A stretch of 25,853 nucleotides of DNA from a virus (taxonomy: Duplodnaviria; Caudoviricetes). The DNA is taken from positions 1 through 25,853 of the IMG/VR virus record IMGVR_UViG_3300020349_000029. One strand, 5' to 3'. Both the position numbers and the translations under genes were made by a program. The notes below the pieces were generated by a model. That model searched no databases and had not been told where the DNA came from. It saw only the letters and a program-made list of their open reading frames with translations. Below are positions 1 to 25,762 of this stretch, one piece after another (positions within the stretch are counted from its first letter, which is position 1; each line of letters starts with the position of its first letter).

Positions 1-16
1 ATGTTTAGACTTGATT

Positions 17-76
17 GTCTAGGACTAGGGTAAATTAATACCCTAGTTTCGGTTAATTAAACCTCATCAGCTAGAC
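17..76 (-). ncRNA. Type I hammerhead ribozyme (HHR-A); predicted cleavage between + positions 23 and 22
   Basis: Minus strand reads GUCUAG-CUGAUGA-GGUU(UAAUU)AACC-GAAA-CUAGGGUA(UUAAUU)UACCCUAG-UC-CUAGAC: full conserved core (CUGANGA, GAAA, GUC) and three perfectly paired stems. Confidence 0.95.
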
Positions 77-208
77 TGATTTTTTGTACCACCTGTGAGT
101 TACCTCATCAAAGTAAACATTCTTTAAAGGTCTACTATTGCCACCTGTATGCGACACTTTTTTGCCTTTGCTTTCTTTATTCTTACCTTTAATTAATTCT
201 TTAGCCAT
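71..208 (-). CDS. Small basic hypothetical protein, 45 aa (MAKELIKGKNKESKGKKVSHTGGNSRPLKNVYFDEVTHRWYKKSV)
   Basis: Not in the ORF track. GGAGGAA SD overlaps the end of the upstream gene, ATG is 2 nt after its stop, and the TAG stop abuts the hammerhead core. Confidence 0.75.
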   Translation of the reverse strand: MAKELIKGKNKESKGKKVSHTGGNSRPLKNVYFDEVTHRWYKKSV

Positions 209-210
209 TA

Positions 211-741
211 TTATTCCTCCTCTATATCTGATAATTGATGAAAGTAGGCATCTTGTTTTAGTTGATGCTCGGCACTTTGAATTTGCATTTTAAGGGCCGC
301 TCTAAAGTAATACCCTAGATTGTTTAATATTTCTTTTTTGGAACTACCCTCTAGAAAATCATTGGACTTAAAACTAAGGTTTTTGTCCTCGTCATATTGT
401 GTCCTATAGTAATTATCCAAATAGTCAAAATTGTCCTCATCTTGATTACTACTAAAGCCAGACCTTTTAAAGGTTTGAAAGTTTATTTCCATTTTGAAAA
501 CTTCGGTATGATATTCGGTGAATTTAATATTATATAAATATTCAATATCACCATGCCGGCCAGTTGTTACCTCATAAGCATCATCATTAATTAATTTGGT
601 AATAAACTCATTGGCGCTTTTAACATTTACCAGCTTTGTGGCTAGGTCTTTGCCTGTCTCTGCAGGATAACCGTCCCAATGCCTGTAAATCCAAAGTGTG
701 GTATCACCAGTTTCGATTGCTATATTACATCTAGTTCCCAT
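211..741 (-). CDS. Conserved phage hypothetical protein (N-terminal MGTR...IYxHWDGYP..G..L motif)
   Basis: 176-aa ORF with AAGGAGG SD; the N-terminal motif is typical of a widespread uncharacterised phage early-protein family. Confidence 0.85.
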   Translation of the reverse strand: MGTRCNIAIETGDTTLWIYRHWDGYPAETGKDLATKLVNVKSANEFITKLINDDAYEVTTGRHGDIEYLYNIKFTEYHTEVFKMEINFQTFKRSGFSSNQDEDNFDYLDNYYRTQYDEDKNLSFKSNDFLEGSSKKEILNNLGYYFRAALKMQIQSAEHQLKQDAYFHQLSDIEEE

Positions 742-742
742 C

Positions 743-889
743 TTAAAAATCCTCCTTTGTTAGTGATTTATAAAATTCTGCCTTGTTGTCGAATTGCTCC
801 AAAGTTGGTTGAGCCATCCAGTATGCTAATGCTGAAACTCCAGCAAATATTAGACTTATTATTAAACTTATGAAAATTGCATCATTCAT
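743..889 (-). CDS. Small single-pass membrane protein, 48 aa (MNDAIFISLIISLIFAGVSALAYWMAQPTLEQFDNKAEFYKSLTKEDF)
   Basis: Not in the ORF track. AAAGGAG SD, N-terminal hydrophobic stretch, stop 1 nt before the next ATG. Confidence 0.8.
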   Translation of the reverse strand: MNDAIFISLIISLIFAGVSALAYWMAQPTLEQFDNKAEFYKSLTKEDF

Positions 890-923
890 AATGTTTCTCC
901 TTTATGTTGTTATAGACTTTATT

Positions 924-981
924 GCCTAAGACTAGGTCAATTAAGACCTAGTTTCGGATATATAATCCTCGTCAGTTAGGC
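924..981 (-). ncRNA. Type I hammerhead ribozyme (HHR-B); predicted cleavage between + positions 930 and 929
   Basis: Minus strand reads GCCUAA-CUGACGA-GGAU(UAUAU)AUCC-GAAA-CUAGGUC(UUAAUU)GACCUAG-UC-UUAGGC: full core, three perfect stems, compensatory changes relative to HHR-A. Confidence 0.95.
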
Positions 982-1950
982 TGACTTTGATACCTCCTCT
1001 TCCTGTTGTTCTGCTAGGCATGAATTGTCCATGATAAATTGACAGGCTTTCGAGGCTTTGCTGATAGCCTTGACAATGTATCGGCTGTCCTCGTGATACC
1101 TTTTATTCCAGCTTTTAATATAACTCGCATGGTTCATTGGTGGACTGACCGCTAAACCTGTATGGGCTGACATGAACACGGCCGTAAATTCTGCTATTAA
1201 CTCCTCAAAGGCATAATCATCATCGCCGAACATATTGGATATGTTTCTTTTAAGCCTTGAGTCGTGACCTGTACTGTGGCCAATCTCATGTAATAGCGTG
1301 GATTTATAACTATGTTCTGCCGTTACACCATTATCAAAAAATGAGGACTTTTTAGGCATACCAATAAAATCTTGGCTAGGACTGTAATACGCTCTATTGC
1401 CACCTTCTTTTAACTCTATGTCTTGGCTTGTAAGATATGAGTCAATAACCTTTTGAGTTAAGTCCATGGTAAATTGAACCTCGGCAGGTCTTTTCATCAT
1501 GTAAGGCTCGCAATTACTTGCCAACTTACCTTGCTCATTTTGAACTTGGTGTGCATTAAAAACGCTATAAACCTTATATAACCAAAATTTAGGTCTTTGT
1601 TTGGTGTTGCCGTCTTTGTCCTCGTAATCCTCTAATACTGGTGATGAAAAGATAATTGCCGTTGATGATTCGCCTTTCTTAACTGAAAAGCCTTTGGATT
1701 TCCAATTCTTGAAAGTACCCCAAAAATCGGACTTGTAACCCATATCATATTTAACCCAAGGTAATATTAAGGCATTGTAACCTCTATAAGGTGTGCCGTC
1801 TTGGTTCATAGCTGAATTGGTTGACCAATTCTTGGACCAGTGATTTGAGCCTGGTTGGTTCATCATTTCTAGAATATTGGCTGACATAGTGTCCTCAATC
1901 TCTTTTTTGACTGCTGAACCTTTAAGACCTTTGATATTTAATTTTTTCAT
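976..1950 (-). CDS. ardC: ArdC-family anti-restriction ssDNA-binding protein with C-terminal zincin-like (MPTase) domain
   Basis: YRGYN, WGTFxxW...VKKGE, VFNAxQV (DUF1738/ArdC-N); AYYSPSQDFIGMP, LLHEIGHSTGHxSRLxR and YAFEELIAE (ArdC C-terminal metalloprotease-like domain). Confidence 0.92.
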   Translation of the reverse strand: MKKLNIKGLKGSAVKKEIEDTMSANILEMMNQPGSNHWSKNWSTNSAMNQDGTPYRGYNALILPWVKYDMGYKSDFWGTFKNWKSKGFSVKKGESSTAIIFSSPVLEDYEDKDGNTKQRPKFWLYKVYSVFNAHQVQNEQGKLASNCEPYMMKRPAEVQFTMDLTQKVIDSYLTSQDIELKEGGNRAYYSPSQDFIGMPKKSSFFDNGVTAEHSYKSTLLHEIGHSTGHDSRLKRNISNMFGDDDYAFEELIAEFTAVFMSAHTGLAVSPPMNHASYIKSWNKRYHEDSRYIVKAISKASKACQFIMDNSCLAEQQEEEVSKSA

Positions 1951-1973
1951 AATGTTTTCCTTTTTAGTTGTTG

Positions 1974-1997
1974 GGGGTCAGCGGAATTGCCAACCCC
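1974..1997 (-). other. GC-rich intergenic RNA hairpin upstream of the ardC RBS
   Basis: Minus strand GGGGUUGGC-AAUUCC-GCUGACCCC, 9 bp including two G-U pairs; no U-tract follows. Confidence 0.6.
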
Positions 1998-2009
1998 AGA
2001 TTAATAAAA

Positions 2010-2228
2010 TTATCCTGTAAAATATTGAATTGATGTATCATCTTGATTGTGATGATTGTCAAAATTAGATAATTTTTCATATAAACTTTCAATCAAATTA
2101 TCATTTTCTTTTTGTTGATATTTTATTAAATGATTGCAGATTATTTCTATTTCTTTTGCGTTTAATTCTACAAAGAAATCTGTCCAATCTCTTACATCAT
2201 CTGGGTTTTTATATTTTGTTATGTTCAT
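2010..2228 (-). CDS. Hypothetical protein, first gene of the leftward early operon
   Basis: 72-aa ORF with AAGGAG SD, directly downstream of a sigma70-like promoter. Confidence 0.75.
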   Translation of the reverse strand: MNITKYKNPDDVRDWTDFFVELNAKEIEIICNHLIKYQQKENDNLIESLYEKLSNFDNHHNQDDTSIQYFTG

Positions 2229-2272
2229 AATGTTACTCCTTAATTGATTAATAAAATTTACTTATGGGTATT

Positions 2273-2301
2273 TAATTACCATAGTAGTAAAACCTTGTCA
2301 A
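2273..2301 (-). promoter_or_regulatory. Sigma70-like early promoter
   Basis: TTGACA-17 bp-TAATTA on the minus strand (perfect -35, imperfect -10). Confidence 0.6.
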
Positions 2302-2339
2302 CATCATTTTAAACAAATTTACAAAATAATTAAATTAGT

Positions 2340-2359
2340 TGTTAATAAGTTGTGAATAA
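2340..2359. promoter_or_regulatory. Tandem DnaA-box-like pair
   Basis: TGTTAATAA-gt-TGTGAATAA; the reverse complement TTATTCACA fits TTWTNCACA. A near-identical copy lies at 24218-24237. Confidence 0.6.
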
Positions 2360-2455
2360 CTTTTGAGATTGCATCTATAAAATAGGTAAATGCAACATTT
2401 ATTTTAATGATTGCATTATTGCAAATCATCACAAGCATTTTTATTTATGTAATTA

Positions 2456-2468
2456 AATCAATAACTTA
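2456..2468 (+). promoter_or_regulatory. IHF consensus site
   Basis: AATCAATAACTTA matches WATCAANNNNTTR; the core TCAATAACTT recurs at 3195-3204 and 3338-3347. Confidence 0.55.
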
Positions 2469-2543
2469 AACGATTGCAAGATTGCATTTAATAACTTTTA
2501 TACTTTTAAACGCTCTTAAGGATTGCAAGATTGCATACTTTCA

Positions 2544-6024: not shown

Positions 6025-7068
6025 ATGAACCAAGCGACAAACCCAGTTGAGGAATCGCCTGAATTAAAATCTAGCGTTGAACAAATTACTGACATTCTGA
6101 CTCGCCCTAGCGATAAAGCAGAAGTAAGTAATGAAACAGAGTCAGAACAACCGCCTATAGAAGATGTTGATTCTGGCGAGGAATATATAGACGAACCTTC
6201 TGAGGAAATTTCTGAAGAATATGAAGAAGTCCTAGAAGATGAGGAAGATTCCGAACTGTTTGCAGATGAACAAACCGACATTAATGAAAATGAAGATTTG
6301 CAAGAACAATTAATTGAAGTGAAGATTGACGGAAAATTAGAGCAAGTATCTTTAGATGAATTAAGAAATGGATATTCAAGGCAACAGCATTTTACTAGAC
6401 AAAGCCAAAAACTTGCTGATGAAAAGAAGCAGTTTGAATCTGAATCTAGACAAGTTCAAGAGGAGCGTAATCAATATGCACAACTCTTAGGGAACTTAGA
6501 AAGTCAAATACTAGAACTAGGCAAAGAGCCTGAACCAGATTGGAATACAATGTATGAACAAGACCCAATCGAAGCTGGTAGAAAACAACATGAGTGGAAT
6601 TCCTATCAACAGCAGAAAGTTGAAAAACTACAAGCTGTCAAAATGGAACAACAAAGAGTAGCACAGCTAGAACAAAGAGACCAGTTAGAACAGTATAAAA
6701 CTATGCTAACTGAAGAATCTCAAAAACTAACTAAAGCTATTCCTTCATGGAAAGACGAAACTATTGCTACAAAAGAAAAAGCTGAATTAAAAGACTTTCT
6801 TTTAAAGAAAGGTGTTACTGAAGAAGAAGTTTCTGCTTTAGTAAAAGCTAATCATGTTAGCGTTTTAAGAGATGCTATGCTTTACAACAAAGGTAAACGC
6901 AAAGTAGTTAAAAGAGCAAACAACACTAACGGAACAAAAGTTCTGAGAAGTGGTAGCAAAAAAGCCCCTAAGAAAACTGATGCCTATAAAAACACGACCT
7001 CAAGATTAAAGAAAAACGGAAAATGGCAAGATGCACAATCAGCCATTTCCATGTTGTTAAACGATTAA
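6025..7068 (+). CDS. Capsid scaffolding protein
   Basis: Acidic N-terminus, VKIDG...VSLDELRNGYSRQ..FTRQSQ.LA motif, coiled coil; precedes the capsid gene; AAGGAG SD. Confidence 0.85.
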   Translation: MNQATNPVEESPELKSSVEQITDILTRPSDKAEVSNETESEQPPIEDVDSGEEYIDEPSEEISEEYEEVLEDEEDSELFADEQTDINENEDLQEQLIEVKIDGKLEQVSLDELRNGYSRQQHFTRQSQKLADEKKQFESESRQVQEERNQYAQLLGNLESQILELGKEPEPDWNTMYEQDPIEAGRKQHEWNSYQQQKVEKLQAVKMEQQRVAQLEQRDQLEQYKTMLTEESQKLTKAIPSWKDETIATKEKAELKDFLLKKGVTEEEVSALVKANHVSVLRDAMLYNKGKRKVVKRANNTNGTKVLRSGSKKAPKKTDAYKNTTSRLKKNGKWQDAQSAISMLLND

Positions 7069-24274: not shown

Positions 24275-25762
24275 TTATACTTTAAGTATTATTAACTTTG
24301 CACCTATTTTACATAAGCCGTCATAGTAATTTCTACTAAGGTGGTCAGCAGAATAGTAATGGCCAAACTCATGTATTAACAGTTCAAGTATCTCTTGTTT
24401 GTTTGTATCTAAATCAAACCATTGACGACCAAGAACATTAAAGAACAACTGCAAGTTTCCACGACCATAACTTGCAAGAGCCCCTGTCCCGTCATGTACT
24501 GTAACTGATAAACTTCCAAAGCCTAATTGTTGATGTAAGAACTTTGCATAGTCAACTACTTCTTGCATTTTATCATCAACAGGAACTTCTTCTGCTCCAC
24601 CAGTAAATTCAGGTTTTGCATACTTACCAATTTGTCCAGACGGCAAAGCAAAATCAGAATATTCTTCTCTTGCTTCTTTTACTTTAGACCATGCTTCTTT
24701 AGAAAGTTGGCTACCTGAGATAACTTGTCTTTCATCTGCAAACGCTTTCTTGTTTGCTTCAATATCAGACATATCATATACAACTGCATCTTCACCAAAC
24801 TTAGCATCAATAACAGACTTAACTGCTTCAGCAGTAGCTTCTTTTTGCTCTAAGGCCTCTTGTGCAAAAGTTGTTTGCAATTCATCTTCTGATAAATCAG
24901 TATGAGTTTGATTTAATACAAATGCTTTTAACTTTTTAAGATAAGTTGGTTTTACATTGTCTCTATCTTTAGAAAGAGGAACTTTCTGATTAACATTTAT
25001 TGTAAAAGGTATATCAGTTTCAACAACTGGTATTCCTAATTCACAAATATAATTTTTATCTAAAGACTTAAACAATTCAACTTCAGTTAGTCTTGAAGTA
25101 GGTGTAAAATTACCTGATTCATCAACAGTTACAGTTGGTAAAGTTTCTGTAAAGACTGAGTGATTGTTTGCTCTTTTTAATAAAACATTGTTAATCAAAA
25201 ACTCAACATTTTTTGGTGGTATTATAGTTTTAGATAAGTTTAATATTTCTTCATATTCACTTTTCTTTAACTTAATTACACCTTCAAAAATTGAACCTTT
25301 TTCAGTTTTAGTTGAGGTCTTAGTTCTAGTGCCATTAGATTTAAAAAGTATAGTTCCTTTTGTGCTAACTATCTTTGCTTCTTTAAACATAGCTAAAGAA
25401 GATTTAGTGCCGTAGGAAAATCTACCTCTCTTTGAAGTATCACTAGCTTTGTAACTTTCATTAAATAATGTATAAGCATCAGCTAATTTTTTAAATCCTT
25501 CAGAACTATCATCAACAACTTTAATTGTTGAACCATTACTATCCCAAGAAACAGTAACTTCGCATTTAGAAATATCTTCATCAAAAGCATTAGAAACTAA
25601 TTCTTTAATAATAAAGATTTTGTTTTTATCAGATTGATTCTTTTTAAGACCAATATGATTTACACTAAACCATTTATTATTTAAACGAGAAGGTTTTGTC
25701 TGCATATCGCTAGAGTCTACCTTACCAACTTTAGTTGGATTTTTTTGTGAAAGTAAATTCAT
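24275..25762 (-). CDS. GHKL (HATPase_c) ATPase fused to a C-terminal zincin HExxH domain
   Basis: IIKELVSNAFD (N box), VVDDSSEGF (G1), RGRFSYGTK (G2); C-terminal ELLIHEFGH. Confidence 0.85.
   Translation of the reverse strand: MNLLSQKNPTKVGKVDSSDMQTKPSRLNNKWFSVNHIGLKKNQSDKNKIFIIKELVSNAFDEDISKCEVTVSWDSNGSTIKVVDDSSEGFKKLADAYTLFNESYKASDTSKRGRFSYGTKSSLAMFKEAKIVSTKGTILFKSNGTRTKTSTKTEKGSIFEGVIKLKKSEYEEILNLSKTIIPPKNVEFLINNVLLKRANNHSVFTETLPTVTVDESGNFTPTSRLTEVELFKSLDKNYICELGIPVVETDIPFTINVNQKVPLSKDRDNVKPTYLKKLKAFVLNQTHTDLSEDELQTTFAQEALEQKEATAEAVKSVIDAKFGEDAVVYDMSDIEANKKAFADERQVISGSQLSKEAWSKVKEAREEYSDFALPSGQIGKYAKPEFTGGAEEVPVDDKMQEVVDYAKFLHQQLGFGSLSVTVHDGTGALASYGRGNLQLFFNVLGRQWFDLDTNKQEILELLIHEFGHYYSADHLSRNYYDGLCKIGAKLIILKV

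Follow-up and report, generated by a model that had tools for sequence, protein, structure and literature searches.

Two Co-oriented Type I Hammerhead Ribozymes at Gene Junctions of a Marine Phage Are Predicted to Process a Polycistronic mRNA

Introduction

The closest described counterparts of the locus reported here are the clustered hammerhead ribozymes of prophages. In the available part of the 2011 study of Perreault et al. (PMC3088659), multiple prophage hammerheads are described as flanking single genes or short gene blocks, a role in processing long phage transcripts into gene-length mRNAs is proposed, and in vitro cleavage is reported for three arrangements, with one triple set flanking the anti-restriction gene ardA. 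The accessible text of a 2019 review treats the purpose of genomic hammerheads in bacteria and phages as unresolved (PMC6765202), and a 2026 paper, in the portion available, gives type I hammerheads as the usual form in bacteria and bacteriophages (PMC13725137). Here we analyze a 25,853-nucleotide (nt) stretch of a marine Caudoviricetes virus (IMG/VR record IMGVR_UViG_3300020349_000029, positions 1–25,853; the whole stretch is referred to below as the window), which carries two hammerheads on its minus strand, HH-A (17–76) and HH-B (924–981), at the borders of a block of three small genes.

Like the clustered prophage hammerheads, as far as the available text describes them, the window copies are co-oriented, lie at gene junctions, and flank a gene block, with ardA there and an ArdC-like gene here (PMC3088659). 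A stop codon within stem I, a hairpin that reuses a stem I strand, and a repeat that includes the downstream untranslated region (UTR) are not described in the available part of the same paper (PMC3088659). At least two co-oriented hammerheads at phage gene junctions are found in the window and in three close relatives, G002–G004, the window being assigned to a phage by its virus record and structural genes. The window copies are of type I with a short open stem I, which measures 5–7 bp across the family described below; the three prophage arrangements cleaved in vitro were reportedly type II.

Two other systems offer points of comparison for what cleavage at such junctions might achieve. The early mRNA of phage T7 is cut between its cistrons by ribonuclease III (RNase III), a host protein that cuts double-stranded hairpins, to give messages with structured 3′ ends. 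The comparison is apt as an analogy: T7 processing depends on a protein, whereas the window motifs would cut themselves and leave 2′,3′-cyclic phosphate and 5′-OH ends. The insulator RiboJ consists of the sTRSV hammerhead followed by a 23-nt hairpin and, according to the available part of its description, raised expression 2–10 fold, for which its authors name the terminal hairpin as one possible cause (PMC6206723). As in RiboJ, a hammerhead in the window precedes a hairpin and a ribosome-binding site, an arrangement that would give a defined 5′ end bearing a hairpin. RiboJ, in contrast, is synthetic and derives from a type III ribozyme that is largely retained on the downstream RNA, whereas in the window the ribozyme would remain on the upstream RNA and the hairpin would be made from the released stem I strand.

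Results

Two Complete Type I Hammerhead Motifs

HH-A (read 76→17) and HH-B (read 981→924) are complete type I hammerhead motifs, as confirmed by their sequences, their minimum free energy (MFE) folds, a strict descriptor, and a family covariance model. Each motif occupies 58–60 nt (6-bp stem I, 4-bp stem II, 7–9-bp stem III) and runs, 5′ to 3′, through the 5′ strand of stem I, the core, the stem II hairpin, GAAA, the stem III hairpin, UC, and the 3′ strand of stem I. The topology is that of type I, with stem I open at the 5′ and 3′ ends and stems II and III capped by loops. In HH-B, stem I is GCCUAA/UUAGGC, the core is CUGACGA, stem II is GGAU/AUCC with the loop UAUAU, and stem III is CUAGGUC/GACCUAG with the loop UUAAUU; GAAA, U16.1, and C17 (position 930) complete the motif. 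The corresponding parts of HH-A are GUCUAG/CUAGAC (stem I), CUGAUGA (core), GGUU/AACC with the loop UAAUU (stem II), and CUAGGGUA/UACCCUAG with the loop UUAAUU (stem III), together with GAAA and the terminal UC, of which C17 is position 23.

Every core position (C3-U4-G5-A6-N7-G8-A9...G12-A13-A14) is canonical in both sequences, all three helices are perfect, and the A15.1–U16.1 and G10.1–C11.1 pairs are present. The cleavage triplet, for which hammerheads follow the rule NUH, is GUC in both window copies and is followed directly by stem I, which places the predicted cuts between C930 and U929 in HH-B and between C23 and C22 in HH-A. The original prediction, made from the letters of the window alone, had listed both minus-strand elements with complete cores and perfect stems, paired differences between the copies in stems I, II, and III, an identical loop III (UUAAUU), and new RNA 5′ ends at 929 and 22. 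Sequence and fold bear out the two motifs, all of the listed details of stems and loop are correct, and the 5′ ends match the cuts predicted behind C930 and C23.

In both cases the MFE fold is the hammerhead fold (HH-B, −22.0 kcal/mol, z −5.07; HH-A, −22.5 kcal/mol, z −4.38), and none of 200 shuffles of either sequence folded as well. A strict descriptor, requiring the core, a stem I of at least 5 pairs, a stem II of at least 3, a stem III of at least 4, A15.1–U16.1, and H17, was run on both strands of the window and returned two matches, HH-A and HH-B, and no other; it returned none in 300 dinucleotide-preserving shuffles of the window. Environmental variants of the locus, from DNA contigs of four marine runs belonging to four studies, differ within the ribozymes in loops only: in loop II of HH-A (positions 56 and 58) and in loop III of HH-B (941, 942, and a T inserted after 944). 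The coding DNA beside the ribozymes carries many substitutions in the same contigs, and this distribution supports constraint on the RNA.

The Viral Family and Its Covariation

To place the two copies among their relatives, IMG/VR was scanned with a pattern whose only fixed elements are the core, the G–C pair that closes stem II, and the four initial pairs of stem III. The pattern matches approximately 140 IMG/VR stretches, and among the matches listed there are 125 loci on 116 contigs. The family set comprises 88 distinct copies, with the window's two included, and the alignment A1 comprises 87 rows, one locus (L006) being excluded. Although stem I is not required by the pattern, 87 of the 88 copies have 5–7 contiguous pairs between their flanks, compared with about 12% reaching five contiguous stem I pairs in a partner-shuffled control. 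The copies are diverse, with 34 different sequences in stem I, 54 in stem II, and 69 in stem III, and position 7 is occupied by U (39 copies), C (25), A (19), or G (5).

Pairing is maintained throughout this diversity. In A1, 95.7% of the cells are paired versus 66.9% in shuffles, and the covariation score is 0.685 versus 0.136, neither value being reached by any of 500 shuffles. Double changes occur at 11 of 17 pairs, and sliding the partner by 1–3 columns lowers pairing to 27–37%. The five inner pairs of stem I are paired in all 87 rows, with 4–5 pair types each. The family-wide conservation of G10.1–C11.1 and A15.1–U16.1 is fixed by the search pattern. That the core and helices are kept by compensatory change over 34 stem I types speaks for selection acting on the RNA fold as such, and the covariation that had been noted between the two window copies thus extends to the family alignment.

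A covariance model built from A1 (R1) scores HH-B at 71.6 bits and HH-A at 68.9 bits, both being rows of its training alignment. With filters off, R1 found no credible further copy in the window; the next best match (16.5 bits, 6408–6458, plus strand) falls within a structural gene and has neither GAAA nor C17. At least two copies are present on 19 of the 116 viral contigs, which have two or three within the sequence retrieved. In GTDB, sampled at one genome per species (185,579 species' genomes), the pattern was found on six contigs, all from metagenome-assembled genomes, and these matches yielded no host lead. Its near absence from prokaryote genomes indicates that the sub-family is essentially viral.

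The locus belongs to a viral hammerhead sub-family that is not captured by Rfam. A search of 20 family loci at the Rfam gathering thresholds gave no hammerhead match. The models Hammerhead_1 (RF00163) and RAGATH-1 hammerhead (RF03152) share with the window copies the catalytic core, the three-helix junction, and the open stem I. In a permissive search of positions 1–1200, RF00163 gave no match even at E ≤ 10, and RF03152 matched HH-A only (26.1 bits versus a threshold of 56.3, E 0.08), in an end-to-end alignment over the core and stem III. Stem II is nearly absent from RAGATH-1, which also carries a hairpin upstream, whereas in the window copies stem II has 4 bp and the upstream hairpin is missing. 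The sole permissive match at HH-B was to a small nucleolar RNA and is spurious. With more than 100 viral copies missed by Rfam models at curated thresholds, virome annotation under-counts ribozymes.

Three loci found in the course of these searches have features of their own. At L006 (1501–1543, plus strand), where alone among the pattern matches stem I is missing, the 3′ flank folds into a strong hairpin of 10 bp (−16.2 kcal/mol), and another CUGAUGAGG box follows about 23 nt later; L006 may have a different, possibly tandem, architecture. L067, from another viral contig, carries a type-P5 twister ribozyme (RF02684; 463–521, plus strand; 51.5 bits, above threshold) about 350 nt upstream of a family hammerhead (871–922) on the same strand, which places two self-cleaving classes in one short gene run. 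In L076, a 38.7-kb viral contig, three tRNA genes (2090–2502, plus strand) lie 500–900 nt downstream of a family hammerhead.

Stop Codon, Ribozyme, and Start Codon at the Junctions

Both ribozymes lie in the sense strand of a minus-strand gene cluster (2228→1) with the order 72-aa open reading frame (ORF), ArdC-like gene, HH-B, 48-aa ORF, 176-aa ORF, 45-aa ORF, HH-A. The two copies are 905 nt apart on the same strand and flank the three small ORFs. The ArdC-like anti-restriction gene (976–1950, minus strand, 324 aa; identified from Pfam, phrog, and the ORF table) has its last codons, UCA GCC (Ser-Ala), and its stop codon TAA (978–976) in the 5′ strand of HH-B stem I. The lysine-rich 45-aa ORF, the third gene of the block (71–208, minus strand; from the ORF table), ends in UCA GUC, and its stop codon UAG (73–71) is in stem I of HH-A. 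In both window copies, therefore, the upstream ORF runs into stem I and terminates within its 5′ strand (UCA GCC UAA and UCA GUC UAG), in agreement with the earlier claim that the two elements lie at gene junctions in the sense orientation.

Across the family, an upstream ORF of at least 40 codons terminates near the ribozyme in 81 of the 88 copies. In 80 of these 81, the first base of the stop codon falls within −15 to +14 relative to the CUGA box, and in 66 the stop codon overlaps the ribozyme (offset −8 to +14). The usual places of the stop codon are just before or within stem I, the core UGA (11 copies), and loop II. We found no paper in the open-access literature on stop codons inside phage hammerheads. 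In both window copies, as in 60 of the 88 family copies, stop codons are present in all three frames before the cut, which we give as a description only, because one TGA and two TAGs are built into the pattern and most of the random-window control is coding DNA.

On the other side of the cut, a Shine-Dalgarno (SD) sequence, AAGGAG (902–897), and the ATG (889–887) of the 48-aa ORF form a translation start (887–902, minus strand) 40 nt past the HH-B cut. The sequence behind HH-A is provided by G001, a record of 36,754 bases that is 97% complete and 99% identical to the window and whose first bases extend past the window end; here AAGGAG is followed by the ATG of a 150-aa ORF, 35 nt past the cut. 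In G001, R1 detected the counterparts of HH-A and HH-B and no further ribozyme. Across the family, 74 of 86 copies are followed by an ORF with an SD-like site, at a median of 41 nt from the cut.

The junction is repeated as a unit. The repeat consists of the last codons of a gene, the ribozyme, and the sequence up to the next start codon, and its copies are 81–93% identical over approximately 75–115 nt. Copies of hammerhead plus UTR stand behind unrelated genes within one genome, and G002, G003, and G004 have three each, behind non-homologous genes. The proteins encoded before GCCUAA/GCUUAA-type copies have a Ser-Ala C terminus in seven of seven cases, and those before GUCUAG-type copies a C-terminal Val in four of four; three of the latter four read through stem I and the core in another frame (…ADEV), with the stop codon in loop II. 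The C-terminal residues shared within each copy type show that the cassette reaches into the ORF. Gain and loss are seen between relatives: in G004 an extra 65-aa ORF with a hammerhead separates the 48-aa gene from the 170-aa gene, at a place where only 1 nt lies between the genes in the window, and an environmental DNA contig (run X3) joins position 77 to position 205 and so lacks the 45-aa ORF beside HH-A.

A third copy in G004 (L142, 2542–2603, minus strand; 52.1 bits) has A and A at G10.1–C11.1, the pair closing stem II, and is possibly a weakened or decaying ribozyme.

A Predicted 5′-Terminal Hairpin on the Downstream Product

The 3′ strand of stem I is predicted to form a new hairpin at the 5′ end of each 3′ product. 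Behind HH-B (913–928, minus strand) it comprises UAGGC from stem I, the loop AAUAAA, and GUCUA; the product segment 929→887 folds at −5.6 kcal/mol (z −4.13), which none of 200 shuffles equaled. Behind HH-A (6–21, minus strand) it comprises UAGAC, the loop AAUCAA, and GUCUA, and the identical stretch of G001 (L130, 56–93) folds at −4.6 kcal/mol, with 10 of 200 shuffles equal. Hairpins reusing the 3′ strand of stem I are found in 18 of 53 sequence clusters, whereas shuffling the downstream sequence 100 times gave 6.6 ± 2.2 and at most 12. Other sub-families reuse the strand in the same way with quite different sequences, and one has instead a separate hairpin abutting stem I. The product hairpin is thus real but not universal. 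We found no paper in the open-access literature that describes the reuse of a stem I strand in a 5′ hairpin.

Discussion

Predicted Self-Processing of the Leftward Transcript

The spacing of 1–2 nt among the three ORFs between the ribozymes, together with a search of positions 1–2800 that found no terminator-like site on the minus strand, suggests that the minus-strand genes are co-transcribed. A promoter scan of the same region is uninformative because it gave fewer matches (10) than expected from shuffles (13). From its anti-restriction gene and its layout, divergent from the plus-strand structural genes, the cluster can reasonably be regarded as an early operon. We consider it likely that the two sense-strand hammerheads cut the leftward polycistronic mRNA, protein-free, after C930 and C23, and regard such self-processing as the most economical reading of the sequences and the best explanation for them.

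In the proposed mechanism, each motif would fold as RNA polymerase passes the junction and would then cleave itself. Given the type I topology, the entire ribozyme would remain on the upstream RNA, with the stop codon retained in stem I, and this RNA would end in two stable hairpins and a 2′,3′-cyclic phosphate. The downstream RNA would begin with a 5′-OH and would keep only six nucleotides of stem I, which could re-pair with GUCUA 6 nt downstream to form the 5′-terminal hairpin; the Shine-Dalgarno sequence and ATG would follow 35–40 nt past the cut. The predicted outcome is three messages, one for the 72-aa ORF and the ArdC-like protein, one for the 48/176/45-aa block (907 nt), and one for the downstream genes, whose stability and translation would be uncoupled from one another.

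Several observations weigh against this account. Natural hammerheads require a tertiary contact between stem I and loop II for fast cleavage at cellular Mg2+ concentrations; inspection by eye for a Watson-Crick pseudoknot identified no such contact in the window copies, in which stem I is open and only 6 bp long. The sole candidate for a contact is an unpaired A at −7, 5′ of stem I, present in 73 of the 88 copies. This A, the fixed stem I length (5–7 bp), and the division of loop II into two classes, 5-nt U-rich and UGAGAUU-like, would be compatible with a docking site. With its flanks included, HH-B favors an alternative fold in the energy model (−25.3 versus −22.0 kcal/mol), which hides CUGAC and both stem I strands: the CUGAC box is paired to GUCAG, and the 3′ hairpin is already present ahead of cleavage. 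The HH-A product hairpin is weaker (z −2.0) than that of HH-B, and such hairpins are limited to about a third of the family. Genome compaction alone may account for the tight spacing of stop codon and ribozyme. No Rfam family reached its gathering threshold in the window, the hammerhead models to which the original prediction had pointed included, and among the runs listed there was no RNA sequencing run with DNA of window positions 1–2300.

Alternative Explanations

The repeats lend themselves to a different emphasis, in which the ribozymes are active but the unit of approximately 95 nt is chiefly a portable junction cassette, RNA cutting being secondary or neutral. Last codons and stop, hammerhead, hairpin, and SD sequence would move together, and their copies would provide homology for swapping small genes between phages, as is the case for the PeSLs of T4-type phages. 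In the available parts of two papers, PeSLs are described as short repeated intergenic cassettes that flank small variable genes and are linked to gene gain and loss among close relatives; they are promoter-terminator stem-loops, not ribozymes (PMC2839356; PMC4122927). This precedent supports a cassette of such a kind, as do the 81–93% identical copies behind unrelated genes in one genome, the three copies each in G002, G003, and G004, the extension of the repeat into the upstream ORF (Ser-Ala or Val ends), the extra ORF and hammerhead of G004, the DNA contig without the 45-aa ORF, and the 19 viral contigs with at least two copies. From these patterns we infer that recombination may occur at the hammerhead cassettes. 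The compensatory changes over 34 stem I types, on the other hand, point to selection on the RNA fold and not on DNA homology alone, and we think it unlikely that portability is the chief role; a portable cassette and mRNA cutting are not mutually exclusive. The position of the stop codon also raises the prospect that translation or alternative folding acts as a gate on cleavage, such that the cut fraction would report ribosome traffic on the upstream gene, since a ribosome terminating in stem I must melt that stem and cover the core. That the stop codon overlaps the ribozyme in 66 of 81 copies fits such gating and is also expected from simple compaction. In HH-B the alternative fold is better than the hammerhead fold by 3.3 kcal/mol in the model, with flank hairpins sequestering CUGAC and the 3′ strand of stem I, and in both copies an upstream UCAG complements CUGA, with an A–U pair at N7 in HH-A and a G–C pair in HH-B. 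Over the family, however, the energy cost of adopting the hammerhead fold amounts to 1.01 kcal/mol when the flanks are real and to 0.98 kcal/mol when they are shuffled (Wilcoxon p 0.76). A family-wide switch through competing flanks is thus unsupported, we claim none, and gating appears decidedly improbable.

We give still less credence to a fate beyond cleavage, in which the 907-nt block (929→23) would be released and circularized, or the RNAs flanking it spliced, through reversal of the hammerhead reaction or the action of an RtcB-type ligase of the host. A 5′-OH and a 2′,3′-cyclic phosphate are the ends on which RtcB acts. GUCUAG of HH-A pairs with UUAGGC of HH-B at all six positions, two of them G·U, so the ends of an excised block could rebuild a hammerhead, and the opposite combination of strands has two A·C mismatches; with two transition differences, the direction that fits would arise by chance in one case out of two. 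Were the block circular, it would be an exonuclease-proof mRNA for three small early proteins and a DNA-phage counterpart of viroid-like and retrozyme circles. In the available part of their paper, Perreault et al. detected no spliced or circular products of clustered prophage hammerheads (PMC3088659), and the runs listed include no RNA run with window DNA; we judge circularization very improbable. That absence, and the failure of any Rfam family to reach threshold, would also be expected if the motifs were chance look-alikes or dead relics without RNA function. This is scarcely credible given a core canonical at every position, the lack of a single descriptor match in 300 shuffles, the compensatory changes across 87 copies, and strain-level variants that fall in loops only.

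Relation to Earlier Work

Self-processing of the polycistronic transcript, our preferred reading, is supported by motif identity, covariation, and junction position. The original prediction stands in these respects. The available text of Perreault et al. already proposes such processing (PMC3088659). In substance, the interpretation is thus already in print (Perreault et al., 2011; PMC3088659), and nothing new in principle comes from the present locus. The additions are modest: the last codons and stop codon within the repeat, the terminal hairpin, and the gain and loss of the cassette between relatives. The locus is a clean and compact case, a marine phage of about 37 kb with exactly two ribozymes bracketing a three-gene block beside an anti-restriction gene, each ribozyme being part of a self-contained cassette of stop codon, ribozyme, 5′ hairpin, and ribosome-binding site. 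This design predicts 5′-OH ends at 929 and 22 and effects of ribozyme and hairpin on downstream expression.

Genome and Gene Context

The window record is an IMG/VR virus, linear, and estimated to be 68% complete. From position 2656, the plus strand encodes a small terminase, an SU10-type portal, a scaffold, a major head protein, and tail genes, from which the minus-strand cluster diverges. The ArdC-like protein matches Pfam ArdcN (9e-21), the zincin MPTase-PolyVal (2.5e-36), and the anti-restriction protein phrog_7245 (1.7e-70). Among the genes of the block, the first, a hydrophobic 48-aa ORF (743–889, minus strand; from the ORF list), is kept in the relative G004, and its only Pfam match, to DUF6341, is sub-threshold. 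The second, a 176-aa ORF (211–741, minus strand), starts 1 nt past the stop codon of the 48-aa ORF, matches phrog_1987 (1.3e-08), of unknown function, and has homologs behind hammerheads in G003 and G004. PHROG and Pfam profile searches gave no family match for the 45-aa ORF. A 47-aa paralog of this ORF is present in G001 (L130, 1115–1258, plus strand); it lies in the same operon, approximately 1.1 kb farther downstream, and is not followed by a ribozyme.

Window DNA was found in marine metagenome runs of eight studies. The nearest named phages, which include Sinorhizobium phiM5, Pelagibacter HTVC106P, and Methylophilales Venkman, have at most 46% portal identity. R1 matched none of the five records searched (HTVC106P, Venkman, phiM5, phage C72C1, and one Manatee Spring record), and blastn of HH-B with its UTR against 50,697 phage records gave no match. 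G001, which is called linear, lacks window positions 78–562 between its last and first bases; the window record and G001 represent one circular or permuted genome cut at different points, and neither of them is complete. A 495-aa ORF near the other end of the window (24275–25762, minus strand) matches no PHROG and shows weak similarity to a GHKL-type ATPase domain (HATPase_c_3, 1.8e-05, at threshold); in a circular genome, this ORF and the ribozyme operon would share a strand.

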